Shown here piece by piece: positions 10,050-61,760 of a stretch of 64,000 bases of DNA. The position numbers and the translations under genes are program-made. Each line of letters starts with the position of its first letter. The first letter of the stretch is position 1. The stretch is from an uncultured Candidatus Saccharibacteria bacterium (GTDB lineage: Bacteria > Patescibacteriota > Minisyncoccia > Phycocordibacterales > UBA12088), in the NCBI GenBank assembly GCA_964531785.1, contig CAZHFF010000003.1:26764-90763 (forward strand), given 5' to 3'. Under the pieces are notes generated by a model, which was given only the letters and a program-made list of their open reading frames with translations, was not told the DNA's origin and made no database searches.

Positions 10050-10075
10050 GGTCACCATGGTTTGAAGCCGGTCGC

Positions 10076-10729: not shown

Positions 10730-10792
10730 GCTGTCCACCGAACCGTTCCTCCCCCACGCTACATTTTGCAGCGTGGTTGCTATACTGTATGT

Positions 10793-21003: not shown

Positions 21004-21039
21004 GGTCGTTGTGCGCGCACACCGGTCACCTTCCGCATG

Positions 21040-21065
21040 AAAAAGACCTCGCTCGAGGTCTTTTT
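21040..21065. terminator. bidirectional terminator between convergent genes
   Basis: A5, then GACCTC, a 4-nt loop, GAGGTC, then T5. Confidence 0.75.
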
Positions 21066-21073
21066 CGATCGTT

Positions 21074-22883: not shown

Positions 22884-22931
22884 CACACGCTCAAGTGTGG
22901 TATGCTCGTGGGAGAAACGGAGCATGACCTC

Positions 22932-24069: not shown

Positions 24070-24672
24070 ATGATCATCGTCGACGTCGAAGCATCCGGAG
24101 TTAACTACGAAAAGCACTCGATCCTCTCGGTCGGTGCGCTGGACCTTGAGCAGCCGGAGCTTCGGTTCTATCGGGAGTGCCGGGTTTGGGACGGCGCCCA
24201 CATCGATGACGAAGCGCTCGCCGTATGCGGCTTCACACGGGAAGAGGCGACCGACAGCGCGAAGGATACTGAGGCGCAGCTCGTAGCACAGTTCCTGACC
24301 TGGGCTGACGGCGCTGAAGATCAAACGCTCGCGGGTCAGAACGTTTCCTTCGATCGCGATTTCCTTCGTGCTGCTGCGGAGCGGGCAGGGTACAACTGGC
24401 CGTTCGCGTACCGCACGCTCGACACGCACTCGCTCGCTTACCTGCATATGGTGGAGCGGGGAATACCGGTGCCCCAGAAGAACCGGCACAGCGGACTCGA
24501 CCTGGACGCGGTGCTCGTGTACGTCGGCATACCCCAGGAACCGCAACCGCACAATGCGCTGACCGGCGCACTCTGTCATGCGGAAGTGATCTCACGACTA
24601 CTTTTCGGCAAAAAGCTCCTTCAGGAATTCGTGCAGTACGACCTGCCTGACCCGATACAAAAACGGTACTAA
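24070..24672 (+). CDS. DEDDh 3'-5' exonuclease (DnaQ-like)
   Basis: IIVDVEASG (Exo I), GQNVSFDRDFL (Exo II) and HNALTGALCHAEV (Exo III). TATCAT (24056-24061) plus 8 nt plus ATG. Confidence 0.8.
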   Translation: MIIVDVEASGVNYEKHSILSVGALDLEQPELRFYRECRVWDGAHIDDEALAVCGFTREEATDSAKDTEAQLVAQFLTWADGAEDQTLAGQNVSFDRDFLRAAAERAGYNWPFAYRTLDTHSLAYLHMVERGIPVPQKNRHSGLDLDAVLVYVGIPQEPQPHNALTGALCHAEVISRLLFGKKLLQEFVQYDLPDPIQKRY

Positions 24673-24686
24673 GTACCTTTTCTTGT
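24656..24686. repeat. palindromic element, copy a (core GGTACTAAGTACC at 24665-24677)
   Basis: ACAAAAACGGTACTAAGTACCTTTTCTTGT. It contains the exonuclease stop codon and is imperfect, with a 1-nt bulge. Confidence 0.8.
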
Positions 24687-24757: not shown

Positions 24758-24794
24758 TTCCCATAAAAAGGTACTTAGTACCTTTTTATGGGAA
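24758..24794. repeat. palindromic element, copy b (inverted core GGTACTTAGTACC at 24770-24782)
   Basis: Perfect 17-bp stem TTCCCATAAAAAGGTAC / GTACCTTTTTATGGGAA with a 3-nt loop. Confidence 0.85.
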
Positions 24795-24795
24795 A

Positions 24796-24820
24796 GGGCC
24801 TGTTCAGTACGAACAGGCCC
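24796..24820 (-). terminator. hairpin downstream of the 24832-25509 gene
   Basis: 10-bp stem GGGCCTGTTC/GAACAGGCCC. On the minus strand it is followed by a short TTT. Confidence 0.5.
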
Positions 24821-24831
24821 CGTTTGTGCGG

Positions 24832-25509
24832 CTATCCGATCCGCAACTTTCTCCTTTTGAACGCTTTTGGTCTAGGCACGTCCTTGTAGATGCGCCGCCC
24901 ATTTTTTTCCTTGGTCACTTTCCAGTAGGTCGCCGTTTCTTCGGCGAGCTGCCAACCTCCTTCCACCCAGCGCTGGAGTATTGGCTCGACGGTTGGTGTG
25001 ACGGGCTCTTTCAGCTGTGGCTCGTAGAAACCTAGATCCCTGGTGAACTTGATCGATTCCGGTGTGATCACGACTGCTGCGTTTGCTTGGCAGACGTCAT
25101 AGTGGAACCAGCGGTTCTGGCCGGCTTGTTCCTGCAGTCCGGGCAGGGGCTCGACGACGAACAGCCGGTGGAGACTGTCCTCTTCGCGTGGATGCCGCAC
25201 GTAGACCACATCCACATAGTCTTCCTGTGCCCCGTCTTTGCGCCGGCGTTTCAGGATTGAAACACGGGCGACGATGGTCCGACCACGGAGCGTCGCGACA
25301 TCCGGGCCGTGCACATAGACCCACACACGCCCCCCACCCTGGAAGTGGAACGGGACGGAGAGGTATGGCGCAAGGCCGACCTCAGGTCGCCCGGCATGCC
25401 AGGTCGCGCCCTTGGGCACACTATACCTTATTGCATGCTCGGCCGTGGCTGTAAGCCTGCGGGATTCGACCGGGTTTTCAACGGGTCGTTTCTCAGCATG
25501 TTCGGTCAT
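24832..25509 (-). CDS. hypothetical protein (orphan, basic C-terminus)
   Basis: SD GGGAG lies 7 nt upstream of the ATG at 25509. No recognisable motif. The C-terminus is KAFKRRKLRIG. Confidence 0.5.
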   Translation of the reverse strand: MTEHAEKRPVENPVESRRLTATAEHAIRYSVPKGATWHAGRPEVGLAPYLSVPFHFQGGGRVWVYVHGPDVATLRGRTIVARVSILKRRRKDGAQEDYVDVVYVRHPREEDSLHRLFVVEPLPGLQEQAGQNRWFHYDVCQANAAVVITPESIKFTRDLGFYEPQLKEPVTPTVEPILQRWVEGGWQLAEETATYWKVTKEKNGRRIYKDVPRPKAFKRRKLRIG

Positions 25510-25658
25510 TTCGGACTCCCGTACCTCCGTACCTCGTGTTGATATATCTCGCATATTGATAACATATACGGAGCGAAAAGTCAAGTACCCTGTATCGCCC
25601 CCCGCTCCAGTTGTTGATTGCCGGCTCCACAACGTACGGCCGTGCTATACTGTTTCGT

Positions 25659-29814: not shown

Positions 29815-29915
29815 CACGGGTGATGTTCGCTTAGCTTCCGGGTCCCTAAGTCGAGCAGTGCGCTCGTGTTCCGATGCGTGGTAGTATAGGCTCCATATCC
29901 GTAACGCCACACACC

Positions 29916-30560
29916 ATGAACAAACCTATCATGCTCATCACCGTGCTCGTGCTCGTAGGTGCCGGTGCCGCATTCTTTGTGCTCCGCGCTCCAACCGATC
30001 CCCAGGGCGAGGACAAGAGTGCCGACACGGGAAGAGAAGATGCTCGTGTGAGCGGATCCGGTTCGCTCAAGAGCCTGCTTGCGCTCGGACAGGACCTGAT
30101 CTGCGACGTCGCGTACCAGGACCCTCAGTCCGATAATCGGACCGAGGGTACGACCTACCTCGCTGGCGAACGTGTGCGGGGGGATTTCACCATCGAGCAG
30201 CAGGGTGCGGTGTACCGCATGAGCACGATACATGATGGCAGCTACGTCTATACCTGGGGCCAGGGCCCGTCCGGTGAGATGGCCATGAAATTCGCGATCG
30301 ATGAGCGCTCACAAGCTACCGTCGATGAGTCGAACGATCTCTTCGAGTCCGACGATGCGGTCGAGTACGCCTGCGCTCCATGGGTTGTCGACCCGGGCCG
30401 GTTCGTGCCGCCGAGCGATATCGAGTTCCAGGACATGAGCGATATCCTCGGGCAGATGCGGACCGATGCGGGTGACCTTGAGTCGGTGCAGTGTGCCGCG
30501 TGCGACCAAGCGCCTGCCGAGGCCCGGGCACAGTGCCGTACCGCGCTCCAGTGCGAGTAG
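29916..30560 (+). CDS. hypothetical secreted/membrane-anchored protein
   Basis: N-terminal hydrophobic helix and four Cys in the C-terminal half. Extended -10 TGGTAGTAT lies upstream. Confidence 0.5.
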   Translation: MNKPIMLITVLVLVGAGAAFFVLRAPTDPQGEDKSADTGREDARVSGSGSLKSLLALGQDLICDVAYQDPQSDNRTEGTTYLAGERVRGDFTIEQQGAVYRMSTIHDGSYVYTWGQGPSGEMAMKFAIDERSQATVDESNDLFESDDAVEYACAPWVVDPGRFVPPSDIEFQDMSDILGQMRTDAGDLESVQCAACDQAPAEARAQCRTALQCE

Positions 30561-30582
30561 CGCCGCCTCATCAGCGCACAGC

Positions 30583-30611
30583 AAAAAAGCGACTGGTGCC
30601 TGTCGCTTTTT
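30583..30611. terminator. bidirectional terminator
   Basis: A6, then AGCGAC, a loop, GTCGCT, then T5, between convergent genes. Confidence 0.7.
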
Positions 30612-30638
30612 GCGTTCCAAAGGCTTGGTGCGTTTACG

Positions 30639-31637
30639 TTACAGTTTGGTTGCGCGGTAGTCCTCGGGGGCGTTCCGCAGATGCTCCTCGATCGCGTCGC
30701 GCGAGAGGAGGCCCTTCTGTGCCCCGATGTGCTGGACCACGGACATGCTGTTGATCGGTGCTCGGGCAAGCGCTTCAGGTACCGAAAGTCCCGCCGCAAG
30801 AAAGCCGGTCAGGGTCGAGCTGAACGCATCCCCGGCACCGGTTCGGTCGACCGGAGGGCTAGGGTCCGGGTACATGGGCATGTGCCAGACCTCATCGTTC
30901 GTATCGAGTATGTAGCTACCGCGCGGACCATCGGTGATGACCGGCATGCGGGGGCCGAGCTCGCGGAAACGGCGCAGCAGGATCGGCATATCCTTCTCGT
31001 CCGTAGCAAGGATCGTCTGCGCCTCCTCTTTATTGCAGAAGAACAGCGTGCATGCCTGGTAGACGTCCTTGAGGGTTTCTGAGCCAAGCTGGATCTGGAA
31101 GCTTCCCGGCTGGAACGCGAGCTTGGTCTCGGGGTGCTCATGCACGTACGTCGCGATATCGTGGTGGTACTGGAGCGAGTGCTCGCCGACGCTCGAGAAG
31201 TAGAGCCATTTCGGGTTGCCCATGTCTGGCACGACGTACTCATACGTTTCGTGTTTGATGAGTATCGTTCGCTCAGGTCCATACCGCAGTACGTAGTGAT
31301 GGTTCGTTTCTTTGCCGCTCTGAATGTCAACGAACCGAGTATCGACACCCTCGTTCTTGAGCCAATCGAGTATCTCCGTTCCGCCTTCGTCATCGCCGAT
31401 GTCGCAGACGAGCGCCGTCCTGAGTCCCAGACGTTTTGCTGAAACTGCCGCGTTCGGGCTGTTACCAACAGCAGGCACGTTGACGGCCCCGATGAACTCG
31501 AGCTTGTCGCCAAAGTACATGGAAAGCACCTCACGGCCTGACAGGTCTTTGTTCACCACCGCTCGGTCGGTCCTGAGCTCGATGAACTCGTCGGTCGTTA
31601 TGTCGCCAATGGCTACGAAGTCTAACTCGTCTTGCAT
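30639..31637 (-). CDS. PfkB-family carbohydrate kinase
   Basis: C-terminal DRTGAGDAFSSTLTGFL (PfkB signature 2). Confidence 0.8.
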   Translation of the reverse strand: MQDELDFVAIGDITTDEFIELRTDRAVVNKDLSGREVLSMYFGDKLEFIGAVNVPAVGNSPNAAVSAKRLGLRTALVCDIGDDEGGTEILDWLKNEGVDTRFVDIQSGKETNHHYVLRYGPERTILIKHETYEYVVPDMGNPKWLYFSSVGEHSLQYHHDIATYVHEHPETKLAFQPGSFQIQLGSETLKDVYQACTLFFCNKEEAQTILATDEKDMPILLRRFRELGPRMPVITDGPRGSYILDTNDEVWHMPMYPDPSPPVDRTGAGDAFSSTLTGFLAAGLSVPEALARAPINSMSVVQHIGAQKGLLSRDAIEEHLRNAPEDYRATKL

Positions 31638-40745: not shown

Positions 40746-40767
40746 TGAGCCGGGTCCACGTAGGGGA

Positions 40768-40795
40768 AACCGCGCCTCAAAGGAGAGGCGCGGTT
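40768..40795. terminator. bidirectional terminator hairpin
   Basis: 11-bp stem AACCGCGCCTC/GAGGCGCGGTT between convergent genes. Confidence 0.65.
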
Positions 40796-40799
40796 GTTG

Positions 40800-45108: not shown

Positions 45109-45209
45109 TGGTACTGTGCGGCAGCCTTCGCCAGATCGCCGCACGGCGGTACAGCACAAGTACCATGCTCCAAGGGAGCATGGTACTGCATGCCGGGCTG
45201 CTTCTGGCG

Positions 45210-48027
<2,818 letters not shown>

Positions 48028-48138
48028 ACCGCTCTGTTCGACCGATGGCGCTGCTCGCATGTTCGTTCATAGGTCAACGAAAAACGCCCTGATCATACGT
48101 TGTGGTGAGCAGGGCGTTTTCTGTATCCGATCCGATTA

Positions 48139-49266
48139 TTAATGCTTGATCTTGATCGCGACCTGGTCGATGTTGTTCGCACGGGGGTCGGTCGTTTTGG
48201 TAGGGACGAGCTCGATCTTGATCGTGCCGGTCGAACGCTTGAGGACCTCATCGAAACCGAGCGTGAACTCGACCTCGGCACCTGCCGGCAGGGAGTCTTG
48301 AGCAGGTGAGGTGTAGCGGTAGGTCGGGTTACCTTCGATCGGGAGGTATGCAATGAACGCCCAAGCACCCGATGGCTCGCCACCCTTATTGGTGACCGTG
48401 AACGATACCCCGGCGGTCTTGTCGGCCGGAATGGTGGGGAGCGGGAACAGGACGTTCTTGCCCTGGACCGGTGCCATGATACCGGTCTCGAGAATATTGA
48501 CCGCAAGGTCGCTCGGGCCAGGCGTGACCGTGGGGCGGATCGGGGTCACGACCGTGGGCCGTGCGACCGGTGCTTGTGTTGCTGCACCGCTCGTTGCCCC
48601 GGTGTCGCTTCCGCCGCGATCGGCGTCCGAGGCCGCACCGTTCGTTGCTCCGCCGGTTGCGCCGTTTTGACCTTCCTGGTCAGTGTCGCGCGGGGTCGTT
48701 GTGCCAAGGAGCGTGCTCCGGCTGTCGGCGATCCGGTCGTTCACAATGGTGACGAGCGTCGTGTCCGAGAGCATCCCCTCACGTGCAGCGATGGTCAGGT
48801 TGACATCCACGAACCTGTTGCTGTCAGACTGGGGAATGATCGAGAATGAACGTTCGCGCAAGGGTACCGAGACCTCACACGCAAGGTTCTCCCAACCATT
48901 TCCGGTCTCCACCTCGAGCCGGACGTTATCCGCGCATGAGTACGAGAAGAGATACTCTTCTGGGGCAGCTTCGCCGGTGTACTCGAACGTGACACGGTAC
49001 TCCTCGTTTGCCGGCACGTTGCGGTTGTCGATGGCGAATGCAAGCGACTCGCGCGGGGTCTCTCGGAACATGCTCTGCACCGCGACTACTGCTCCCTGCA
49101 GGCGTGCGCCAGCGTTCGGTATGGTGCGTACGAGCTGTACCGCCAGCCATGCCGCGAGCGTGAGCGCAGCAATAAGACCAATGATGGCCAGGCTCTTCAT
49201 GATCCCCGATGCAATACGCTCACCGCGCGGGTTGGTCGGTGTCTCCTGTGTGTTCTTATCGTTCAT
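48139..49266 (-). CDS. secreted protein with TM anchor, Gly/Thr/Ala-rich linker and Ig-like (CARDB-like?) C-terminal domain
   Basis: TM helix, low-complexity region GQNGATGGATNGAASD..., and a beta-rich C-terminus. Confidence 0.45.
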   Translation of the reverse strand: MNDKNTQETPTNPRGERIASGIMKSLAIIGLIAALTLAAWLAVQLVRTIPNAGARLQGAVVAVQSMFRETPRESLAFAIDNRNVPANEEYRVTFEYTGEAAPEEYLFSYSCADNVRLEVETGNGWENLACEVSVPLRERSFSIIPQSDSNRFVDVNLTIAAREGMLSDTTLVTIVNDRIADSRSTLLGTTTPRDTDQEGQNGATGGATNGAASDADRGGSDTGATSGAATQAPVARPTVVTPIRPTVTPGPSDLAVNILETGIMAPVQGKNVLFPLPTIPADKTAGVSFTVTNKGGEPSGAWAFIAYLPIEGNPTYRYTSPAQDSLPAGAEVEFTLGFDEVLKRSTGTIKIELVPTKTTDPRANNIDQVAIKIKH

Positions 49267-51020: not shown

Positions 51021-53993
51021 ATGAACAACAGCATCTCACAGAACATACGACGGTACAGCCACTACCTCATGGGTGGCATGGCTCTTTCGATACTGGTCCT
51101 CGGATCGCTCTATGCGTTCGAGGGTCTTGGCGCACGATCTGCTACGCCCGAGGCGGATGCGTGGAGCTGTGCGTGGATGAAGGCAACGCCCTCGACCGTA
51201 GAGAAAGGTGGTTCGACCACGCTGTCGTGGAGTTTCGGCAAGGCCGAAGACGGCGTCTTTGTCACCATCAAGGAGCTCGGCAGCCAGCAGTACCTCGGTA
51301 CGACCGGGAGCACGTACGTTACGCCTCCGGCGACCATGACCTATACGGCGATCGCCCACAAGGTCGGTACGACCAAAACCTACACCTGCAGCACCAAGGT
51401 GACCGTGACTGAGCCGGTCGCCGACAAGTGCGACGCTGTGGAGTTTTCTATACAGGGCAACAGCTTTACCTGGGGCGGCCCGCCGGCACTCTCCCACTAC
51501 ACCGCTACCTTCTGTGACGGTACGACCTCAGGCAAGGTCGAGACGGACCATGCTCCTGATCGTATGACCGTGACCCTCGATCGTCCTATCGCCAAGGTGA
51601 ACGGGAAGGGTGGCCTCTGTCACAAAGAGGTGACCGCAGCCTGTGCACCAAAGCCTGAGCCGAAGCCGGCATCGTGTGAGCTTACGGCAGATCCGACCAC
51701 TGTTGTAAAGGGTGGGAATAGTTCACTGACCCTCACCTCAAAGTATGCGGTATCGGCAACGATCGACCAGGGGATCGGTCAGGTGAGCACGACGACGGGT
51801 ATCTCGATCGCGTCGCTCGCTAACACGACGACCTACACCGCGACGGTCACTGGCCAGGATGGCAAGACCGCCACCTGTAAGGCGACGGTGACGGTTACCG
51901 AGCCGCAACCGGAGTGGCCGGCATGTCCTTTGACCGAAGGGGTCATCGTGAACTTCAACGGCAAAGGCTTGCGCAGCAACGGTACCGAGGCTGAAGCCAC
52001 GAGCGATGTGTATCCGGTGCAGCTTACTGCGGGGACTTATACGATCAAGAGCGCATCATGGGACGGATACCCGGCCCGGGTTCATGCGACGCAACCGAAC
52101 GAACAGTGGAAGCTTGTGCTCAAGCACGAGGGTGCCGTCGTACATACGACCGGGGCCACGACCGATCTTGCTGACTATGTCGTATCTTCACTGGTAACCG
52201 ATACGCTCGAGAACGCGGTCGTGCTTCCGAAGGGTGTCGACCTGTTCTATGCGCGCCACGCGGTCTATCCCGACAAGACGTCACCGAACAGTGTTCAGCC
52301 GATCTGTGTATCGTTCGTGCGGCACGCCGACCCGACGCCGGACCCGGAACCTAAGTGTGATATTTCTGCAAGCCCGCTCCTGATCGAGAAGGGTGCATCG
52401 TCAACGATCACCTGGACCTCCAAAGACGCAACGAGCGTTTCGTGGACGGGCGGGGTGAGCTCGAGCGACCTGAACGGTACGACGGTAGTAAGTCCGACCG
52501 CAAAGACCACCTATACGGGCACCTTTGCCGACAAAAAGGGAAAGACCGCGATCTGTAGCGTGACCGTGGACGTAAAGGCGCCATCGGCAGCACCTTCCTG
52601 TGACATGAACGTATCTGCGAGCAGTGTCGTGCGTGGATCGAGCGTGACCCTCAGCTGGGATTCGACCAATACGAAGAGCGTGACGATCGATCAGGGTATC
52701 GGATCGGTCGCGACCAGTGGCTCGAAAGAGATCGTGGTCCAGGGGAACACGACGTTCACCGGAACGTTCACTGGCGACAAAGGTGCAACCCAGACCTGCA
52801 GCGCGAGCGTGTCCGTGCGCACGACCGGCGGCGGTGGTCCGTGCCTCAACTGCGATGATGACGATGATGACGACGAACCGCGAGGCGGCGGCGGTGGTGG
52901 TGGCGGTGGTGGTGGTAGCGAACCGGATCCCAAGAAGCCCACGATCGTGCTCTCGAAGCAGGTCACAAATCCGGGCGGCTACATCACGCTTGATCAGGTG
53001 CCGTACACCGGTTTTGAGGCGGGTCCTGTTCTGACGGTTGCCTTCTGGCTTGGCGTCCTCGCTGTGAGCGCGGCACTTGCCTACGTTCTCACGCTTGTGC
53101 AACCGCTGTCCCTGGTCGGTGCTCTGGGTGCCCTGAACAAGGAGCGTGCGATAGAACAGGCTCGCATCACTGAACTGCGTACCAAGCCGGCACGCGTGAC
53201 CAAGCCGTCGGTGTTCTCGCAAGCGCCTGCACACGGCTATGCGATCGGAGATCGGGATGACAGCAACACGTTCATTGAGAACGCGGCACACAAGGAGAAC
53301 ATACTTCTTTCGCCTGAAGCATTGCGTGTGATCGCGACCGAGATCGAGAGGACCGGGGCAGACCGCACCGCGTTCCTTACCGGATTCTTCGACAAAGCTA
53401 AGGCAGAGTTCGCTCGCGAGGACGGGTGGATCCTCCTTTCGAAGGAGCGCACCGCCACGCTCGTGGGAACGTCAGGCGCAGCTCATGCCTACACCGCACC
53501 CGCGGTACGTGAGGACCCTGGCTCGGCTGTCGCCGTGCAGACCCCTGCACCCGCGCCGCAGGCAGCAGCACCGAGCGCATCGGTTCGCGCGGAGGTCTCT
53601 GCACCAGCAGCTCCTCTAACGAGCGAGCGTCCGACGCACAGCTTCACGAAGGCGGCCCCCGTTTCTATTGCGACATTCGTTGGGTGGCTCGTTGCGAAGG
53701 AGGAGCAGAAGGTCTTCGAGCATCTCCGGAGCGCGTCCGCACAGGGAGGTATCGAACACTTCATCGGTGAAGTGGTGCGTGCGCTCGATGATGTCTACAA
53801 GCATCGCCTTGAGGGGAACCATAACCCTGACGCAGAGCTGGCACGCCTCACCGCCACGTGGAGCAACGGAGACTTTGAACAGGTGCTCGGCATACTTGTT
53901 GAGTGCATTGACTTCAGTTATTCGAGCAATCGGATCGGAGCGAAGGTCGCACTGGCGAAGGCGTTCGAGTACTTCCGTTCAAAGACAGCGTAA
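51021..53993 (+). CDS. large surface protein: signal/TM, 4 Cys-bracketed Ig-like repeats, poly-D/poly-G hinge, VPYTG motif, TM helix, ~300-aa tail
   Basis: See the findings. The motif VPYTG is at 52998-53012, followed by the hydrophobic segment FEAGPVLTVAFWLGVLAVSAALAYVL. Confidence 0.7.
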   Translation: MNNSISQNIRRYSHYLMGGMALSILVLGSLYAFEGLGARSATPEADAWSCAWMKATPSTVEKGGSTTLSWSFGKAEDGVFVTIKELGSQQYLGTTGSTYVTPPATMTYTAIAHKVGTTKTYTCSTKVTVTEPVADKCDAVEFSIQGNSFTWGGPPALSHYTATFCDGTTSGKVETDHAPDRMTVTLDRPIAKVNGKGGLCHKEVTAACAPKPEPKPASCELTADPTTVVKGGNSSLTLTSKYAVSATIDQGIGQVSTTTGISIASLANTTTYTATVTGQDGKTATCKATVTVTEPQPEWPACPLTEGVIVNFNGKGLRSNGTEAEATSDVYPVQLTAGTYTIKSASWDGYPARVHATQPNEQWKLVLKHEGAVVHTTGATTDLADYVVSSLVTDTLENAVVLPKGVDLFYARHAVYPDKTSPNSVQPICVSFVRHADPTPDPEPKCDISASPLLIEKGASSTITWTSKDATSVSWTGGVSSSDLNGTTVVSPTAKTTYTGTFADKKGKTAICSVTVDVKAPSAAPSCDMNVSASSVVRGSSVTLSWDSTNTKSVTIDQGIGSVATSGSKEIVVQGNTTFTGTFTGDKGATQTCSASVSVRTTGGGGPCLNCDDDDDDDEPRGGGGGGGGGGGSEPDPKKPTIVLSKQVTNPGGYITLDQVPYTGFEAGPVLTVAFWLGVLAVSAALAYVLTLVQPLSLVGALGALNKERAIEQARITELRTKPARVTKPSVFSQAPAHGYAIGDRDDSNTFIENAAHKENILLSPEALRVIATEIERTGADRTAFLTGFFDKAKAEFAREDGWILLSKERTATLVGTSGAAHAYTAPAVREDPGSAVAVQTPAPAPQAAAPSASVRAEVSAPAAPLTSERPTHSFTKAAPVSIATFVGWLVAKEEQKVFEHLRSASAQGGIEHFIGEVVRALDDVYKHRLEGNHNPDAELARLTATWSNGDFEQVLGILVECIDFSYSSNRIGAKVALAKAFEYFRSKTA

Positions 53994-54063
53994 GCGGCAT
54001 AACGCCGGTGCATATCCAAATGACCAAAGAACCCCGCCTCACGCGGGGCTCTTTGGTCATGCC

Positions 54064-55851
54064 CTACGATGTCGCACGGTCGATGTCGAGCTGTACCAGG
54101 GTCTCGACCACTGTGTCTTTGGGTAGGGACTGCGAGCTGCCATCGCGACTCTCAAGCGTCACATTCTCTTCGGCGACCTCTTTGTCGCCGATCACGGCAA
54201 AGTAGGGTAGTTTTTCCAGTTTAGCGGCACGTATCCTTTTGCCGAGGGACTCGTCCGACTGATCGAGCTCGGCACGGATACCCGCTGCTTTGAGCTGTGC
54301 GAAGAGGTCTGCTGCATAGGTACGGTGCGCCTCTCCTATCGGCAGGATACGCACCTGGACCGGCGCGAGCCAGAACGGGAACGCGCCGGCATAGTGCTCG
54401 ATCAGGAACGCGAAGGTGCGTTCCAGGCAGCCGATGGCGCTCCGGTGTATCATGACAGGCCGCTTCTTTTTGCCGTCCGCATCGGTATAGGTGATGTCGA
54501 ACTTCTCAGGCAACAGAAAGTCCATTTGCGCGGTGAAGAGCGTGTCTTCTTTGCCGTTAACGTTACGTGCCTGGACATCGAGCTTCGGTCCGTAGAATGC
54601 CGCTTCGTCCTCGGCCTCCGTGTAGGTGAAGCCAAGCTCATCGAGCGCCTCCTTCATCGTTCCTTCGGCCTTGTTCCACAGCTCGTCGTCCGGGTAATAC
54701 TTTTCCTTGTTCGCGCGGTCCCGTTTTGAGAAGCGGTACGTGACGCTCGCGTCGAGCCCCAAGCCACGCATGCCCTCCTCGATGAGGCGACAGACGTTCT
54801 TGAACTCGTCCTTCAGTCCTTCGGGGCTCACGAACAGGTGCGCATCGGTGAGCTGGAACTTCCGCACCCGTATCATGCCCATGAGCTCGCCCGACTTCTC
54901 GTACCGGTTGTAATCCGCTATTTCCGCATAGCGTACGGGGAGGTCCTTGTAGCTCAGTGGTTTACGCAGGAGGAGGCGTATGTGGTGGGGGCATGCCATA
55001 GGGCGGAGGTAGAACACCTCGCCGTCCATGTCGATGGGTGCGTACATGTTGTCCTTGTAATGCGCCAGGTGTCCAGAGGTATGGTAGAGCTTCTCGTGCG
55101 CGAGATAGGGGGTTGAGACATGGTCGTACCCGTACTTTCGCTCGAGGTCCCGGGTGAACTGCTCGAGCGCGAACTTCATCGCGGTTCCCTTAGGGGTCCA
55201 CATGGGGAGGCCCTTGCCCACCTCCTCATCGATATAGAACAGGTCAAGCTCACGCCCGAGCTTTTTGTGGTCGCGCTTCTTTGCCTCCTCGAGTTGCGTC
55301 TGGTACGCCGCCAGGGCTTCTTTGCTCTCAAATGCAAGGCCGTAGATGCGGGTGAGCATCGCGTTCTTCTCGCTTCCGCGCCAGTACGCGCCTGCCATGT
55401 GGGAAAGGGTGTACCCCATGCCCGGGATGTCTTTGCTCGGGTGTTCTGCATGACCCCCGCGACAGAGGTCGTGGAATTGTGCGCTGTCGAGCGTGCAGTG
55501 CTCGTTCTCACAGGACTTGTAGATGGTGAGCTTCTCGCCCCGGGCGGCGATCTCCTCGATGAGCTCGAGCTTGTATTCGTTCTTTGCGAATACGCCCTGT
55601 GCCTGCGCTCGGTCGACCTCCTCACCCTCGATAGTGTGCCACTTTTTCACGATCTCGCGCATCTTTTGTTCGATCGTCTTTAGGTCATGATCGCCTGGCT
55701 TCTCGCCTTGGCCAAAGTCGAAGTCATAGTAGAATCCGGTATCGATCGCCGGACCCAAGGTCGGCTTGGCGTGTGGGTAGAGCTCATGCACTGCGGCTGC
55801 GAGCACATGGGCGAGCGTGTGGCGTCTGGCTTGTAGTTCTTCAGGGTTCAT
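54064..55851 (-). CDS. thrS: threonine--tRNA ligase (no N-terminal TGS domain)
   Basis: HTLAHVLAAAV (editing/SAD domain), class II motifs and a C-terminal anticodon-binding domain. Confidence 0.9.
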   Translation of the reverse strand: MNPEELQARRHTLAHVLAAAVHELYPHAKPTLGPAIDTGFYYDFDFGQGEKPGDHDLKTIEQKMREIVKKWHTIEGEEVDRAQAQGVFAKNEYKLELIEEIAARGEKLTIYKSCENEHCTLDSAQFHDLCRGGHAEHPSKDIPGMGYTLSHMAGAYWRGSEKNAMLTRIYGLAFESKEALAAYQTQLEEAKKRDHKKLGRELDLFYIDEEVGKGLPMWTPKGTAMKFALEQFTRDLERKYGYDHVSTPYLAHEKLYHTSGHLAHYKDNMYAPIDMDGEVFYLRPMACPHHIRLLLRKPLSYKDLPVRYAEIADYNRYEKSGELMGMIRVRKFQLTDAHLFVSPEGLKDEFKNVCRLIEEGMRGLGLDASVTYRFSKRDRANKEKYYPDDELWNKAEGTMKEALDELGFTYTEAEDEAAFYGPKLDVQARNVNGKEDTLFTAQMDFLLPEKFDITYTDADGKKKRPVMIHRSAIGCLERTFAFLIEHYAGAFPFWLAPVQVRILPIGEAHRTYAADLFAQLKAAGIRAELDQSDESLGKRIRAAKLEKLPYFAVIGDKEVAEENVTLESRDGSSQSLPKDTVVETLVQLDIDRATS

Positions 55852-55879
55852 AGGACGATGGGTTACTACTTAAGTGTAT

Positions 55880-56013
55880 AGGACTTAGGCATTTGGATGA
55901 AGTTCGAGGCGCCGAGAAGCGAAGATCCGATGCGTACTGGCAGTACGGAGAGGATCTGAGCGCCGATGGTAGCAATGACCAAAGATTACTTTTGTGCCAA
56001 ATGCGTAGGTCCT
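55880..56013. ncRNA. unassigned, strongly structured ~134-nt element between the attenuator-like U-tract and thrS
   Basis: Nested helices: 55880-84/56009-13, 55889-96/55997-56004, 55908-12/55960-64, 55923-28/55952-57 and 55933-38/55942-47. Confidence 0.3.
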
Positions 56014-56020
56014 CTGTAAT

Positions 56021-56040
56021 AAAAAACCTCCGCGGGGGAG
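56021..56040 (-). terminator. weak terminator of the putative thrS leader
   Basis: On the minus strand: CUCC-CCCGC-GGAG, then G, then U6 (56026-56021). The stem is only 4 bp. Confidence 0.35.
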
Positions 56041-56075
56041 TGTGTAGCGTTACGACAACCCCGCTCCTGTCGGTC

Positions 56076-56108
56076 TCAGGTCGCGGTTGTGGTCGTTGCT
56101 CGGATCAT
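56076..56108 (-). CDS. putative leaderless Thr-rich leader peptide MIRATTTTAT
   Basis: ATG ATC CGA GCA ACG ACC ACA ACC GCG ACC TGA. The ATG lies 6 nt after a -10-like TAGGAT. Confidence 0.4.
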   Translation of the reverse strand: MIRATTTTAT

Positions 56109-56114
56109 GGGGTA

Positions 56115-56143
56115 ATCCTAGCGCGGGGTGGGGGAGTTGTAAA
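56115..56143 (-). promoter_or_regulatory. putative promoter of the thrS leader (TTTACA, 17 nt spacer, TAGGAT)
   Basis: On the minus strand: TTTACA (56143-56138) and TAGGAT (56120-56115). Confidence 0.4.
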
Positions 56144-56550
56144 GCACTCGGTTGACCGCACACGTAGGCGTAGCACATGAACCTTTTTCACGAGCGTTTT
56201 GGTGCATGCGCCCAGGTTTGAAAGGTAGCTCACACATGGTTTATGTGGCGATCACATTAGGTCAGCCGTATCGCGTTATCTTGCAGCGTGAAAGGACCTC
56301 AGGCATGTTCCACGTCTGCTGATGGCCTTATCCGTCTGTTCGACAATGTGTCCGACCACTTGCGACCTCAGCGTCTGTTCTGCGATGTACGGTGCCCTCC
56401 GTACCAGTGTAGTTAGATGTGCCAATAGCGCATCCAGCACATCATGCGTGTGACTACTTGTATGAAAAAACGTGAAAGGTGTTGCCTCGCACGTGATGGT
56501 TTAGAGTACGTGACTGGAAATGTGCGCTGTTTCGGGGTACGCTAGCGTCT

Positions 56551-58509
56551 ATGGACCTGCATACCGTTCGAACCAAATACATTGAGTTTTTTAAAGCACG
56601 GGGACACGCGGAGATCCCGTCTGACAAGCTGGTGCCGGAAAACGACCCCACGACGCTCTTTACCGGCTCGGGCATGCAGCCCCTGGTACCGTATCTTTTG
56701 GGTGAGAGTCACCCCAAAGGTACGCGACTGGTCGACAGTCAGAAGTGTTTTCGCTCGATGGATATCGAGGAGGTTGGTGACAACAGACACACGACCTTCT
56801 TTGAGATGCTCGGCAACTGGTCCTTGGGTGACTACTATAAAAAGGAGCAGATCCCGTGGATGTTCAGCTTTCTCGTTGACGAGCTCGGACTCAATGCTGA
56901 GCGCCTCTACATCACCTGTTTTATCGGTGCACCTGAGTACGATATCCCGAAGGATGAAGAAGCTGCCGAACTGTGGCAAAAGTTGTTTCAAGAAAAGGGA
57001 ATTCGTGCAGACATCGTTGACATCAATACAGAAGCCGATGGCTATAAGCGCGGCATGAAGGACGGCGAACGTATCTTTTATTACGAAGGAAAGAAGAACT
57101 GGTGGAACCGAGGCAAGACAGGCCCGGAGACGACTCCGATCGGTGACCCGTGCGGACCCGATTCAGAGATGTTCTATGAGTTTACCGATGTGGAACATGA
57201 CACGGCGTTCGGTGAGCGTTGCCACCCCAACTGTGACTGCGGGCGTTTTATGGAAATAGGGAACAACGTGTTCATGGCGTACCGGAAGGTTTCGGAAGAC
57301 ACATTCACGCCGCTCGAAAAGCCGAATGTCGATCAGGGTTCAGGCTTGGAGCGTATCGCCGCTGCAGTAGCGAACAGCTCGGATATCTTTCCTATAACGC
57401 ACGGTTCTATTATCGAGTACCTGGAAAAAGTCTCAGGGAAAGCATATGCGGATGATAAGCGTAGCTTCCGCATCATCGCCGACCATATGAAGGGAGCGGT
57501 GTTCCTCATTGGTGATGGTGTGTATCCCTCGAACACCGATCAGGGCTACTTTGTACGGCGCCTCCTTCGTCGTGCGGTGCGATACGCAGACAAGCTCGGC
57601 ATGAAAGAGAGCGGCCTTTCGGGTGTGGTGGATGCGGTCGTGGAGATGTACGAGAAACAGTACCCGGTACTGCGAGATAAGAGAGAAGATATAAGAAATA
57701 AGATAGATGAGGAAGAGAAGAAGTTTAGGACAACTTTAAGACGAGGTTTAAAGGTGTTTGAAAAAACGTTTAGGCTTCATTCGGGATCATACTCAAAACA
57801 CGAAAAACCTACAGACGCGGAGATCAACACCATTCTCAGATCGCAACCAGAAGAAATTTCGCCACAGGATATATTTGAGTTGATTTCGACGTACGGTTTC
57901 CCAATGGAGCTAATTAAGGAAATCGCTACAGAAAAGCAGATCTTCATTTCTGAGCAAACTCTTGCTCATGTTGACATGCTGATTGAAAATCATCGGCAGC
58001 TTTCCCGAGCAGGAGCAGAGCAAAAGTTCAAGGGCGGTCTTGCGGATGCGGGTGAGGTGACGACGATGCTCCACACCTGCACCCACCTCATGTTGGCGGG
58101 ACTGCGTAAATACCTTGGGCCTGATGTGCACCAGGCAGGGAGCAACATCACCGCAGAGCGCACACGCTTCGACTTTACGTACCCGGAGAAAGTGCCCCGT
58201 GAGATTCTCGACAAGGTAGAGGCGTATGTGAACGAAGCGATACAGAAGAAATGTCCGATGACCAAGACCCTTATGAAAAAGGAGGACGCCAAAGCTGCTG
58301 GAGTGGAAGGGAGCTTCTGGGAGAAGTACCCGGATGAGGTAAACGTCTACGCGGTCACTTGTGACGATGGGACAGTATACAGCGCAGAGCTCTGTGGCGG
58401 CCCGCATGTCGCAAGCACCGCCGATATTAAAGGTACGTTCAAGATCATCAAAGAAGAAGCCTCGAGCGCGGGCGTGCGGAGGGTGAAAGCGGTACTTGTC
58501 GATGCCTAG
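56551..58509 (+). CDS. alaS: alanine--tRNA ligase (652 aa, lacks C-Ala domain)
   Basis: RTKYIEFFKARGH...FTGSGMQP...FEMLGNWSLGDYYK, the editing domain HTCTHLM and CGGPHV. TACGCT (56538-56543) plus 7 nt plus ATG. Confidence 0.9.
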   Translation: MDLHTVRTKYIEFFKARGHAEIPSDKLVPENDPTTLFTGSGMQPLVPYLLGESHPKGTRLVDSQKCFRSMDIEEVGDNRHTTFFEMLGNWSLGDYYKKEQIPWMFSFLVDELGLNAERLYITCFIGAPEYDIPKDEEAAELWQKLFQEKGIRADIVDINTEADGYKRGMKDGERIFYYEGKKNWWNRGKTGPETTPIGDPCGPDSEMFYEFTDVEHDTAFGERCHPNCDCGRFMEIGNNVFMAYRKVSEDTFTPLEKPNVDQGSGLERIAAAVANSSDIFPITHGSIIEYLEKVSGKAYADDKRSFRIIADHMKGAVFLIGDGVYPSNTDQGYFVRRLLRRAVRYADKLGMKESGLSGVVDAVVEMYEKQYPVLRDKREDIRNKIDEEEKKFRTTLRRGLKVFEKTFRLHSGSYSKHEKPTDAEINTILRSQPEEISPQDIFELISTYGFPMELIKEIATEKQIFISEQTLAHVDMLIENHRQLSRAGAEQKFKGGLADAGEVTTMLHTCTHLMLAGLRKYLGPDVHQAGSNITAERTRFDFTYPEKVPREILDKVEAYVNEAIQKKCPMTKTLMKKEDAKAAGVEGSFWEKYPDEVNVYAVTCDDGTVYSAELCGGPHVASTADIKGTFKIIKEEASSAGVRRVKAVLVDA

Positions 58510-58514
58510 CACCC

Positions 58515-58541
58515 ACAAAAAGGTACTAAGTACCTTTTTGT
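58515..58541. repeat. palindromic element, copy c (core GGTACTAAGTACC at 58522-58534)
   Basis: Perfect 12-bp stem ACAAAAAGGTAC/GTACCTTTTTGT, 6 nt after the alaS stop codon. Confidence 0.85.
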
Positions 58542-58675
58542 CAGTAGCAAGAAACAATGGTTGACACGGCACCATGTACATATAGTAGTATGGCACCCCG
58601 ACGCACGCATTGACCCGTCGACCTAGAGGTGCTTTGCTGAGGACAGTATTGTATTGTCGGAGCGTGGAGTTTCTC

Positions 58676-58939
58676 ATGAAGAACCAAGTATTGGACTTTG
58701 AGCTTGCAGTTGGGGATGTTGTCGAGTTGTACGAGTGGGATACTGGCAGACACATCGGCTTTGGAATGTGTAGCGAACGCGTCTCGGTCGCACAAGCCTC
58801 GGGCGTTGTGGATCGAGATGGAAGGGACCCTGGCGTAACAACGTTTCGTGTTCCGCTCGTCGGAACAGGAGAAACTGTTCTGACGTGCGACTATCGCTGT
58901 GAACGCTCTCAGACCCTGCCGACCCGGGTAGCTTCATAG
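58676..58939 (+). CDS. hypothetical 87-aa protein bracketed by palindromic elements c and d
   Basis: SD GGAG lies 7 nt upstream of the ATG at 58676. No motif found. Confidence 0.4.
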   Translation: MKNQVLDFELAVGDVVELYEWDTGRHIGFGMCSERVSVAQASGVVDRDGRDPGVTTFRVPLVGTGETVLTCDYRCERSQTLPTRVAS

Positions 58940-58981
58940 GCGTGTGGTCCTGATCCAGTATCGGGACCGTTTTCGGTTCCG

Positions 58982-59022
58982 CCCACACCAGAAAAGGTAC
59001 TAAGTACCTTTTCTGGTGTGGG
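58982..59022. repeat. palindromic element, copy d (core GGTACTAAGTACC at 58996-59008)
   Basis: Perfect 19-bp stem CCCACACCAGAAAAGGTAC/GTACCTTTTCTGGTGTGGG. Confidence 0.85.
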
Positions 59023-59117
59023 GTACGTGTGCGGGTGGTGCTTGCTGTACGTTCGGTTTTCCACTGCTCAGCCCTTCTGTGGCGCCGCTCTCCGCTGTCG
59101 AGCGGTATACTTACCCC

Positions 59118-60308
59118 ATGGGTATACCCTTTGGGCATGGTAAGGAACCAGGTGCGGTGGCCCTTTTTGACGTGGGAAGCGCGAGCGTCGGTGTGGGCAT
59201 CGCGGTCCACACACATGAGGGTGTGCGGCTCCTGTGGGACATGCGCTTGTCGTACGCGTACCAGCGCGATCTCGACTACTTACGGTTCGAACGGTCGATG
59301 CTTGCCACCTTGCTCGAAGCGGGCATGCGGCTCACAACTGAAGGTGTACAGGCGGCACAACAAAAACACTCGTTTCCTATCTCGAGCCTTCGACCGGTCT
59401 GCATTCTGTCAGAGCCCTGGTTCATTGGCGGGGTGCGCGAGAGTACGGTCACCAAAGAACAGGGGGTCACGGTGACCCCTGCGGTCCTCGAGGACCTTGA
59501 ACGCAGGGCCCGGCAGGAGTTCGAGACCAGCAAACAGATGAGCACCTGGCATGATGTCATGGGTACCGACACGACACTTCTGGATACGCGTGCACTCCAG
59601 GTTTCGCTCGATGGGTATCCGGTGACCAAGTACCTCGGCCGCAAGGCGTGCCAGCTGCGTATGGTGGTCTATGCGGCGCACGCACCAAAGACCGTGCTTG
59701 CGGAAGTCGAGGACGTGCTTCTGAAGACGTTGCCGAGCCAACGGGTCGAATTCCGGACGAGCACCGAAGTGGCGTACGGTGCGCTCGAAGTTCAGGGTCT
59801 GACGCATGGGAACCTGCTCCTGGTCGAGCTCGGCGGTGAGATCACCTCGGTCGCGCTCATCCGTAAAAGCGCGCTCCGTGCGGTCCGCGTGTTCCCGCTC
59901 GGCACGAACCATGTGCTTCGGGAAGGGTTTCCCCAGGTGGCGAGCTACGCTGAAGCCCGGGGGAAGCTCGAGCTCCTCAAGCCGGAACCCGCTAAACAGG
60001 GCGATACACCGCCTTTACCGAAGGGGGTGGTGCACAGCTTAAAGGAGTGGCACGAGAGCTTGATCAAAGCCGTGACGGAGCTCAGCGAGGGCATTACGCC
60101 GCCACGCAACGCGGTCCTTATCGCGAACGAACTCTGGAAACCATGGTTCATACCTGCCCTCCGGAGTCCGTGGAAACAGCCCGGCGTACGGACCGAGCTC
60201 GGATTCTCGGTGGTCGAGCAGCAAGGAGTACTGGGTACCGGGTCTGCGGCAGCACGTGCCGCAGACGGAAGGATCGCGTCTATGCTGCGAGGGATATTGA
60301 CACGCTAG
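59118..60308 (+). CDS. hypothetical protein with actin-like (ASKHA: FtsA/PilM/MreB-type) ATPase motifs
   Basis: ALFDVGSASVGVGI (phosphate-1-like) and LLLVELGGEITSVALI (phosphate-2-like). TATACT (59106-59111) plus 6 nt plus ATG. Confidence 0.45.
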   Translation: MGIPFGHGKEPGAVALFDVGSASVGVGIAVHTHEGVRLLWDMRLSYAYQRDLDYLRFERSMLATLLEAGMRLTTEGVQAAQQKHSFPISSLRPVCILSEPWFIGGVRESTVTKEQGVTVTPAVLEDLERRARQEFETSKQMSTWHDVMGTDTTLLDTRALQVSLDGYPVTKYLGRKACQLRMVVYAAHAPKTVLAEVEDVLLKTLPSQRVEFRTSTEVAYGALEVQGLTHGNLLLVELGGEITSVALIRKSALRAVRVFPLGTNHVLREGFPQVASYAEARGKLELLKPEPAKQGDTPPLPKGVVHSLKEWHESLIKAVTELSEGITPPRNAVLIANELWKPWFIPALRSPWKQPGVRTELGFSVVEQQGVLGTGSAAARAADGRIASMLRGILTR

Positions 60309-60383
60309 TCGTGCACGCACCTGTCGTGCCATGGTATAGTTTCTGTATACGAACCTGATCTTAGTTATTGTTACTCACACAGT

Positions 60384-61760
60384 ATGCCCAAGCCCCCCTT
60401 GCACGACGTCATCGTCAAGCCTGTCCGGAGAGCTGCGACGCAGGAAAGCACGCCGCCGAGGTCGTACACCCCGCCACCGTCACAGGACCTGCCTCCGCGA
60501 ATGCCCGAACGTCCTCGCCCCTACCTACCCGCTGAGGACTCGTATCACGAGTCCGACCCGTTCACACCGACCAGGGAGCCGCGTAGCTCGTTCCCCTGGC
60601 TCTTTGTGGCACTTGGGCTGGGAGCGGTCATTTTAGGGGTCTCGTTCGTGCTTTCGCTCCTGTTCGCGGGGGCAACCGTGACCGTGTACCCGAAGCAGGA
60701 GACGGTTTCGGTCACTGCGGACCTGTCTGCCACGTTGAGTTCCGGTGTCTTGCCGTTCGAACGCATGAGCCTTGACCGCAGTACCGAGACCATGCTCGTT
60801 GCTTTGAAGGAAGAGCGGGTGGAGGAACGGGCAAGCGGTCGTATCACCATATACAATGATCACTCTGAAACACCCCAGCGCTTGATCAAGAACACCCGGT
60901 TCGCGAGCCCTGACGGCCGTATTTACCGCATTCGTGAGTCGGTCGAGGTGCCGGGAAAGAAAGCTTCTGGTCCGGGGACGATCGAGGTCGCCGTCTACGC
61001 GGAAGAACCGGGCGAGGAGTATAATCGGGGGCCGACCGAGTTCACGGTACCCGGGTTCGTCGGTATGCCTCAGGAAGGGAAGGTGTACGGCCGCTCGACC
61101 GGCGACATAACCGGAGGTTTCGATGGAACGCGGCGTACGCTTGATGAGCAGGAACGCAATGTTGCCCTCTCGCAAATGGAAACCAAATTACGCGACGAGC
61201 TCCTTGCTGCGGCGTTCGGCGATGCCGCGAAACCAGACGGGTATGTACTCTACAAGGACGCGGTCTACTTTGATTTCCAGCCCGCACCTGACCGCTACGA
61301 GGGCAGTGACAAGGTGATAGTATCGCTTAAGGGCACGCTCCATGGCATACTGTTGCGTGAGGATGCGCTCGCCAAGGAGATCGCTCGGGTGACCATTGCG
61401 GGCTATACCGGTGACCCGGTACGTATCGACAACCCGGATGATCTGGTCGTTCGTATGGTGCGCTCGGGAGAGCCTGAAGAGCCGGGAACCACTGACACGA
61501 CCGTGGCCCCCTGGACCGCAGACAACCTCACGGCCGCAGTCTCAGGAAAGGCCCGTCTTATATGGCTTTTTGACGCAGAGCAGCTCGCGGGAGACTTGGC
61601 CGGACGAGACAAGGAGGCCATGTATGCCACGGGTCCTGGGGGTATTCTCGCGGGGTACCCGGGGATAGATCGCGCCGAGGCGACCGTACGTCCGTTCTGG
61701 AAAAAGGCGTTCCCCGAGGAGGTCGCGGATATCAAGATCGTGACCGTACTTGACTCGTAA
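60384..61760 (+). CDS. single-pass membrane protein, Pro-rich N-terminus, large extracytoplasmic domain
   Basis: One TM helix ([25 protein letters not shown]). No recognised motif. Confidence 0.5.

Follow-up and report, generated by a model that had tools for sequence, protein, structure and literature searches.

Four palindromes at gene 3′ ends of a Patescibacteria genome are probably REP elements of a single-copy, domesticated transposase

A 64,000-nt stretch of DNA from an uncultured bacterium (contig CAZHFF010000003.1, positions 26,764 to 90,763; hereafter the window, meaning the whole stretch that was analysed) carries four copies, a to d, of a short palindrome. We conclude that these are probably repetitive extragenic palindromic (REP) elements, spread by a single-copy, domesticated transposase of the Y1/HUH type, a REP-associated tyrosine transposase (RAYT, also called TnpA_REP). 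Judged from the sequences compared here, the palindrome and the RAYT genes that it brackets on other contigs form a REPtron arrangement in which REP and RAYT co-vary. All four copies are intergenic, fall in two intergenic regions and lie at or just after gene 3′ ends, with copy a overlapping a stop codon:

24657 to 24686, no strand: putative REP copy a, imperfect palindrome ACAAAAACGGTACTAAGTACCTTTTCTTGT, with a TAA loop (24670-24672) that serves as stop codon for a DEDD/RNase T-like gene.
24758 to 24794, no strand: putative REP copy b, TTCCCATAAAAAGGTACT-T-AGTACCTTTTTATGGGAA, a perfect palindrome with arms of 18 nt that abuts the hairpin at 24796-24820.
58515 to 58541, no strand: putative REP copy c, perfect palindrome ACAAAAAGGTACT-A-AGTACCTTTTTGT, beginning 6 nt past the alaS stop codon.
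58982 to 59022, no strand: putative REP copy d, CCCACACCAGAAAAGGTACT-A-AGTACCTTTTCTGGTGTGGG, a perfect palindrome with arms of 20 nt; a 396-aa gene starts about 95 nt downstream, at 59118.

The 13-mer GGTACTAAGTACC matches the window exactly at 24665 (+), 24770 (−), 58522 (+) and 58996 (+), a density of about 1 per 16 kb, against a chance expectation of 0.00 in dinucleotide-preserving shuffles. Relaxing the search to two or three mismatches added no copies in the window, and across it the half-site AGTACCTTTT was found nowhere beyond the four palindromes, with no degenerate copies either. In b, c and d, the two arms match each other with 100% complementarity about one central base. Copy c has 13-nt arms and a 1-nt centre, equivalent to a 12-bp stem and a 3-nt loop, with the left flank CCCAC unpaired, and the 20-nt arms of d form a 19-bp stem; the two share the core AAAAGGTAC-TAA-GTACCTTTT. 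Because the left flank CCCA(C/T)A is common to b, c and d, these three copies appear to descend from a common ancestor. An earlier note on this DNA had reported the coordinates, stem lengths, common core and CCCACA-type flank of c and d, and had held that an identical 13-mer occurring four times in 64 kb is not due to chance; recomputation bears it out on every one of these points.

Folded as single-stranded DNA, c, d and b reach −10.9, −22.4 and −16.5 kcal/mol, respectively (z of −6 to −8), and copy a is weaker (−6.3 kcal/mol, z of −1.8). Copies a and b are 105 nt apart; c and d share an orientation and are separated by 474 nt. Between the two loci lie 34 kb, and the sole sequence that they have in common is the 21-28-nt palindrome. 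Throughout the family, the constant part is an apex of 19-21 nt, AAA(A)GGTACT-W-AGTACC(T)TTT. Contig L021, from an independent assembly of run SRR9016294, is 100% identical to the window over positions 52043-61034, c and d included. A sequencing-adapter or assembly artefact was ruled out: the motif is embedded in-frame, its loop doubling as stop codon both in RAYT genes and in the RNase T-like gene. It is not known to match any sequencing adapter. With Rfam, the whole window at gathering thresholds gave tRNA-Thr only, and both loci at E values up to 10 gave only sub-threshold matches to generic hairpins (miRNA). A literature search for the motif string returned nothing relevant.

First among the observations that tie the palindrome to a transposase, RAYT genes on other contigs are flanked by it on both sides. 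On contig L052, exact copies of the motif at 10263 and 10330 precede a gene for a 226-aa RAYT (10370-11050), which is followed by exact copies at 11061 and 11145. Contig L049 has an exact copy at 1396, a RAYT gene at 1458-2132 (−), the product of which is 54% identical to that of L052, and further exact copies at 2187 and 2252. On L077, copies at 9873 and 9935 precede a RAYT gene at 10001-10675, the TAG stop codon of which is the loop of a third copy at 10667, again with the exact motif on both sides. Sister RAYT genes are flanked by variants of the palindrome, AAAGGTAC-YSR-GTACCTTT on L074, GAAGGTACC-W-GGTACCTTC on L078 and AAAGGTACCTGACACCTTT on L076, and the more distant RAYTs of L072, L073 and L075 are accompanied by other palindromes. 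The REPtron arrangement, with one REP family per tnpA_REP gene, and atypical REP classes lacking a GTAG foot have been described (PMC6006769, PMC5581495, PMC2817692).

Second, the bracketed genes encode recognizable members of the Y1/HUH group. The L052 and L049 proteins match Pfam Y1_Tnp above its cut-off (E about 1e-11), the sole NCBIfam match is REP_Tyr_transpos (REP-associated tyrosine transposase), and in the PDB the best match to a profile built from 30 homologues is E. coli TnpA_REP (4ER8, E of 4e-5). The same assignment covers P0138 and P0142. The HUH motif (HWH) and the catalytic tyrosine (in RYVERN) align with those of 4ER8, and H60-W-H62 and R121-Y122-V-E-R-N are invariant. At E < 1e-10, the clade comprises 5842 members, the named ones being mostly Patescibacteria, Minisyncoccia or Parcubacteria. 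In L073, L074, L077 and L078, and apparently also in L079, the gene sits at a conserved site upstream of rplJ-rplL and after a gene for a large PG_binding_1-type protein; this position fits a single-copy RAYT and suggests that a domesticated transposase has been inherited vertically. Nearly all of the homologues P0122-P0241 end in (P)RGRP(K/R)K(G)x, which resembles an AT-hook, and in P0127, P0138, P0140 and P0142 the final codons, AAA AAA GGT ACT plus the stop codon, are the left arm and loop of the REP. Speculatively, the C-terminal RGRPKKG could contact the A:T tract of the stem.

Third, a RAYT gene of this type is found on a contig that probably belongs to the window organism. The 4.2-kb contig L079 comes from run SRR9016294, the same run as the window-identical contig L021, and encodes the RAYT P0142, which was picked among the homologues for its amino-acid composition of high-GC type and its KKGT C terminus. 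Here GGTACTAAGTACC occurs at 2789 and 2846, the RAYT gene spans 2934-3608 and its TAG stop codon is the loop of GGTACTTAGTACC at 3600. L079 has a GC content of 0.563, with values of 0.64-0.73 at third codon positions (GC3), and a codon model trained on window genes gives its genes 0.16-0.24 per codon; for true window frames, the mean is 0.27 and the 5th percentile 0.10. In tetranucleotide profile, L079 correlates with the window at 0.88, compared with 0.78-0.96 among chunks of the window itself and at most 0.775 for every other locus. Because L079 shares the sample and matches the window in GC content, codon usage and tetranucleotides, it probably belongs to the same organism and carries that organism's own cognate REPtron.

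Fourth, the motif recurs in multiple copies in other genomes. Scans covered a set of species-representative genomes and a Joint Genome Institute (JGI) metagenome set, in neither of which the genome of the window organism is included. The 19-mer AAAGGTACTAAGTACCTTT was found at at least 14 loci, on separate contigs, of one metagenome-assembled genome (MAG) labelled Deltaproteobacteria (JAYVQZ01), at 4 loci of a Pseudobdellovibrionaceae MAG and on 42 metagenome contigs with GC contents of 0.25-0.65, often as pairs 44-84 nt apart. In the multi-copy genomes, the palindrome lies 0-26 nt past the 3′ ends of open reading frames (ORFs), often between convergent genes. Isolated matches are expected by chance, because, given a hairpin, a palindromic 19-mer holds no more than about 11 nt of information; singletons in unrelated low-GC contigs (for example, L031, L034, L043 and L050) were therefore not counted, and evidence was restricted to multi-copy genomes and RAYT-flanking copies. 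The earlier note had proposed a count in related MAGs. Relatives whose alanyl-tRNA synthetase (AlaRS) is 76%, 74% and 65% identical lack the motif in the roughly 20 kb surrounding alaS; in other MAGs, it is multi-copy.

Beyond the apex and its A:T tract, the outer stem has a mean of 2.6 extra base pairs in 76 distinct copies, against 0.33 expected; 18 of the 76 have at least 6 extra pairs, and the outer sequences are copy-specific. Such complementary stem bases may reflect insertion into the loops of existing terminator hairpins, or else cleavage followed by snap-back synthesis that copies one flank onto the other; the perfect outer pairing may also be the product of a general palindrome-perfecting process. 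Insertion and a general process are considered because terminators of the candidate phyla radiation (CPR) that are not REPs are likewise long perfect palindromes with internal A:T tracts. CCCA was tried as the REP 'foot' and rejected: only 10 of the 76 copies carry it, making it a feature of a subfamily at most.

Some copies on these contigs have additional features. The right arm AGTACCTTT and its flank are tandemly duplicated 0-6 nt downstream at L052 11061-11100, L055 ~1667-1700, L064 ~100-140 and L065 ~221-260, and AGTACCTTTGAGAGAGG occurs twice in L052, directly after the RAYT gene. The ends of L002 and L014 and the starts of L007 and L035, which are contigs of MAG JAYVQZ01 and of metagenomes, fall exactly in the palindrome, which therefore seems to break short-read assemblies. 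In high-GC rhizosphere contigs (L044 1-1250, L045, L055, L056 and L059; GC of 0.59-0.64), related palindromes AAAAAGGTACTWAGTACCTTTTT and AAATGTACTWAGTACATTT are clustered with conserved spacers of about 20 nt. By eye, the roughly 0.9 kb between two clusters on L044 resembles what we take to be an IS5-family transposase gene with inverted repeats starting TACTTAGAG. The only viral contigs with the 19-mer are two related jumbo-phage contigs of 358-378 kb, in which the hairpin lies directly upstream of a tRNA gene (L028 6792-6810 and L029 2550-2568; also L067 ~1515); the phage copy is probably an unrelated terminator-type hairpin that matches by chance.

By analogy with E. coli TnpA_REP and with the IS200/IS605 family, the RAYT would bind the hairpin once this has folded in single-stranded DNA at replication forks and, on the same analogy, might then cleave and rejoin it, seeding new copies. 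Once resident at gene 3′ ends, the hairpins would probably act as stabilizers of mRNA 3′ ends or as weak two-way terminators, as REPs do elsewhere; either role is plausible for the copies described here.

The system resembles the REPs and REPtrons of E. coli, Pseudomonas and Stenotrophomonas (Nunvar 2010, PMC2817692; Bertels and Rainey 2011, PMC3116915; Quentin 2018, PMC6006769) in its extragenic hairpin repeats of 21-41 nt at gene 3′ ends, in a Y1/HUH transposase gene with its own type of REP on both sides, in the co-variation of REP sequence with RAYT lineage and in a conserved chromosomal position of the RAYT gene, here at rplJ-rplL, which matches the single-copy vertical pattern. It differs from them in lacking a 5′ GT[AG]G foot, in its perfect palindromes with a 1-nt centre and nearly equivalent strands, in the A:T tract within a stem whose base is copy-specific but complementary, in a C-terminal RAYT extension of about 80 aa ending in RGRPKKG and in its host, a streamlined Patescibacteria genome.

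In REPINs and bacterial interspersed mosaic elements (BIMEs), inverted REP doublets form one long hairpin. The copies described here are likewise often paired, with a and b 105 nt apart, pairs 57-67 nt apart beside RAYT genes (L049, L052, L077 and L079) and pairs 44-56 nt apart in high-GC contigs, but they fold singly, and because one base sets the orientation, 'inverted' and 'direct' pairs both occur. With the IS200/IS605 elements ISDra2 and IS608, the proteins share a fold family (2XM3, 2XMA and 2XO6 are the next-best profile matches) and, for the RAYT by analogy, the recognition of hairpins on single-stranded DNA. Unlike in those elements, the RAYT gene does not occur in multiple copies and lacks a tnpB partner, the hairpins are scattered independently of it, and left and right are the same palindrome rather than a distinct left end (LE) and right end (RE).

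Several of these points, and others, count against reading the palindromes as REPs. No copy has the GT[AG]G (GTAG or GTGG) foot at the base of its stem, as REPs typically do, apart from classes such as TnpA_Y1 subclass 2.6 and class 3 (PMC6006769). The copies are perfect palindromes with orientation marked by the central base alone, whereas well-studied REPs are imperfect hairpins, and a and b do not make a REPIN, an interpretation that we rejected, the spacer between them being unpaired and each copy folding alone. REPs typically number tens to hundreds genome-wide, whereas the count made here covers 64 kb and L079. Neither the window nor the c-d segment holds a RAYT or a RAYT remnant (tblastn with 113 homologues, nothing significant). 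The search for a cognate enzyme suggested in the earlier note thus drew a blank in the 64 kb; on L079, the motif brackets a RAYT gene, and the tie between L079 and the window is one of sample and composition, not of physical linkage. On REP_Tyr_transpos the RAYTs score 54-63 bits, below the 80-bit equivalog cut-off.

The features surrounding the four copies bear on what else the palindromes could be:

22902 to 24029: gene for a ParB-HTH/Noc-like protein of 375 aa, just upstream of the a/b cluster.
24070 to 24672, plus strand: DEDD/RNase T-like exonuclease gene, with its stop codon in the loop of copy a.
24796 to 24820, minus strand: separate GC-rich hairpin GGGCCTGTTC-N5-GAACAGGCCC, terminator-like, belonging to the 266-aa gene and immediately proximal to copy b.
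24832 to 25632, minus strand: the 266-aa gene, convergent, with copy b just beyond its GC-rich hairpin.
56551 to 58509, plus strand: alaS (AlaRS, 652 aa), with copy c at its 3′ end.
58676 to 58939, plus strand: 87-aa ORF lying between c and d; GGAG precedes its ATG by 6 nt.
58944 to 58970, plus strand: separate hairpin GTGGTCCTGATCCAGTATCGGGACCGT, terminator-like, followed by T(T)TTCGG, immediately proximal to copy d.

The window covers housekeeping genes of a Patescibacteria (CPR) genome of Parcubacteria type. Among its 56 gene calls, Pfam identifies aminoacyl-tRNA synthetases and ribosomal proteins, gyrB, mreB and others of that sort. The closest AlaRS relatives reach 76% identity, and Adlerbacteria, Kaiserbacteria and Minisyncoccia are among the named AlaRS matches. 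Compared with its three nearest homologues, the window AlaRS has a 24-aa insertion (residues 408-431; 57772-57843) and three additional residues at 472-474. The 201 nt that span both insertions (57772-57972) have a GC content of 0.42, compared with 0.507 for 56001-58000 and 0.58 for the window.

Since all four copies stand at gene 3′ ends, they could be nothing more than intrinsic two-way terminators, alike through convergent selection for an A-tract, a stem and a T-tract and not linked to any RAYT. The layout is indeed that of bidirectional terminators: the motif is often found between convergent genes in other genomes, copy a is flagged as terminator-like on both strands by a terminator scan, and other convergent gene pairs in the window carry palindromes built in the same way, as at 21039-21066, between 29874-30560 (+) and 30639-31637 (−), and between 45751-48027 (+) and 48139-49266 (−). 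The stems of these ordinary terminators, however, are unrelated to and stronger than those of the GGTAC copies; the organism thus has ordinary two-way terminators, and the GGTAC copies are a distinct repeat family with the same layout. Convergence leaves the identical 19-21-nt apex and the CCCA flank unexplained. The conserved stem is just 5 bp, with 3 G:C pairs, followed by T4-5; copy a alone passes the scan, and when the full hairpin is folded to minimum energy, the T-tract pairs with the A-tract, leaving no free T-run after c or d. Copies b and d lie just distal to separate terminator-like hairpins, and around RAYT genes the palindrome occurs on both sides, the 5′ side included. We therefore regard terminators alone as an unlikely explanation; a terminator role is itself compatible with being a REP. 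The proposal in the earlier note that the elements act as bidirectional terminators is favoured by the 3′ position of every copy and disfavoured by the short conserved stem and the paired T-tract.

The ordinary terminators (21039-21066; the intergenic regions 30561-30638, 40746-40799 and 48028-48138; and those of L073, L074, L077 and L078) also take the form of long perfect palindromes. They contain an A:T tract and pair further towards their outer ends, as in GCAACAAAAACACCCC-ATGC-GGGGTGTTTTTGTTGC, a general style, shared with related CPR genomes, that is unusual. At 45159-45187, 16 nt past a minus-strand gene, is a perfect palindrome, AGTACCATGCTCC-AAG-GGAGCATGGTACT, the outer ends of which read as the two REP half-cores with their places exchanged (AGTACC...GGTACT), perhaps by chance.

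A perfect 21-bp dyad is also typical of the operators of dimeric helix-turn-helix proteins, and a ParB-HTH protein is encoded about 640 nt upstream of copy a, so that the palindromes could be double-stranded sites of a dimeric protein, either operators or parS-like sites for the ParB/Noc-like protein encoded at 22902-24029. Extra direct half-sites beside some copies in L052, L055, L064 and L065 would suit such sites. The window holds no match to canonical parS (consensus TGTTNCACGTGAAACA) within three mismatches, an absence listed in favour of parS-like sites at one point of the analysis and taken at another neither to help nor to hurt. Yet, across the 76 copies, the outer arms vary from copy to copy and remain perfectly complementary, which favours a hairpin over a duplex site. 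The copies are located at 3′ ends rather than promoters, the motif is unrelated in sequence to the parS consensus, and the 14 or more copies over separate contigs of one MAG are unlike the few origin-proximal sites expected of parS. Given also the consistent association of motif and RAYT gene, we consider a double-stranded protein-binding site highly improbable.

CPR bacteria are thought to depend on DNA uptake, and signals for uptake accumulate in terminators in Neisseria and Haemophilus. Inverted pairs of an uptake sequence would account for a motif that is over-represented and hairpin-forming at 3′ ends, but known uptake sequences occur at about 1 per kb, mostly as single copies within genes, compared with about 1 per 16 kb and no lone half-sites here. 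With the association with RAYT genes explaining enough, uptake sequences strike us as a scarcely credible source of the palindromes.

Copies c and d also enclose a gene-like segment, and the earlier note had suggested that the palindromes might be protein-binding or recombination sites delimiting insertable cassettes. The Shine-Dalgarno-led orphan ORF that it had placed there is present, as is the small T-tailed hairpin after it. Apart from its own copy in L021, the 87-aa product has no homologue among 5.8 billion proteins, and neither it nor its neighbours match Pfam, NCBIfam or PHROGs. Its codon score is −0.10 per codon, below the 5th percentile of the true window frames given above, and its GC3 is 0.53, compared with about 0.71 for window genes; structure prediction was uninformative, with a mean predicted local distance difference test (pLDDT) score of 47. 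We regard its coding status as doubtful, an ORFan with non-native codon usage. The 'promoter-like region' ahead of it proved weak: the −10-like hexamers closest to TTGACA (58561-58566) stand 14 or 19 nt away, and a scan returned no plus-strand promoter.

Were the palindromes recombination sites in the manner of integron attC, c and d would be the borders of an 87-aa cassette. The 440 nt that they enclose hold a single Shine-Dalgarno-led ORF of non-native codon usage in DNA with a GC content of 0.539, compared with 0.58, the slot between alaS and the conserved 391/396-aa gene carries another gene, Vut_1, in the relative with 76% AlaRS identity, and RAYT genes are themselves laid out as REP-gene-REP. 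Like attC sites, the palindromes (perfect or imperfect) would fold as single-stranded hairpins and may flank an ORF. No integrase, recombinase, transposase or RAYT, however, is found among the 56 window genes (Pfam for the domains), and the features of attC are absent: the elements are perfect palindromes of 27-41 nt, far shorter than attC, with no R or L boxes, no extrahelical bases and no cassette array, and c and d hold a single doubtful ORF. The a/b pair encloses about 70 nt and no ORF, the a/b and c/d loci share nothing beyond the palindrome, and most copies in other genomes are single or doublets 44-84 nt apart, without cargo.

Comparison with the relative does little for cassettes either. 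Vut_1 has no match anywhere in the window, and the intergenic region holding c and d is 608 nt long, compared with gaps of 17 and 40 nt in the relative. The synteny comparison proposed in the earlier note thus did reveal a difference in the slot after alaS, but with AlaRS only 76% identical, that difference is unremarkable; with neighbouring proteins only 27-37% identical, differences in gene content are expected. The 87-aa ORF, having no homologue, gives no sign of movement. Recombination sites delimiting cassettes are in our judgement very unlikely.

A related possibility keeps the RAYT: it could mobilize pairs of REPs in trans, so that the segment from c through the 87-aa ORF to d (58515-59022) would be foreign cargo bounded by REPs, a cassette-like vehicle. 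RAYT genes, being arranged as REP-gene-REP, make such cargo conceivable, and IS200/IS605 elements, which are excised between two hairpins, offer an analogy for a REP pair as the ends of a unit. We think this improbable; most simply, c and d are two independent REP copies in one expanded intergenic region. As for descent from a mobile repeat, for which the earlier note had offered REP-like and miniature inverted-repeat transposable element (MITE)-like elements as alternatives, the former gains from the palindrome flanking RAYT genes, and the latter was rejected, the common unit being only the 21-28-nt palindrome, with no direct repeats flanking the copies.

Interpreting the palindromes as REPs of a RAYT also accounts for the several genes that end inside the hairpin. 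In Proteobacteria, REP/RAYT systems are seen as intragenomic replicators that persist for long and pass vertically, with secondary roles in the stability of mRNA and in termination. To our knowledge, they have been studied almost only in Proteobacteria, and no paper in the literature searched ties REPs or RAYTs with functional detail to Patescibacteria. The palindromes would define a REP class in Patescibacteria, with a GGTAC-N-GTACC apex, a built-in A:T tract, no GTAG foot and a RAYT gene beside rplJ. This would provide an annotation rule for a recurrent palindrome in CPR MAGs, which also breaks assemblies at contig ends. The compact pair of a 224-aa RAYT and a 21-nt hairpin would suit biochemical study of hairpin recognition without a guide tetranucleotide. 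For the biology of these bacteria, a REP class with its RAYT in Patescibacteria would mean that even ultra-small, streamlined genomes maintain such a system.

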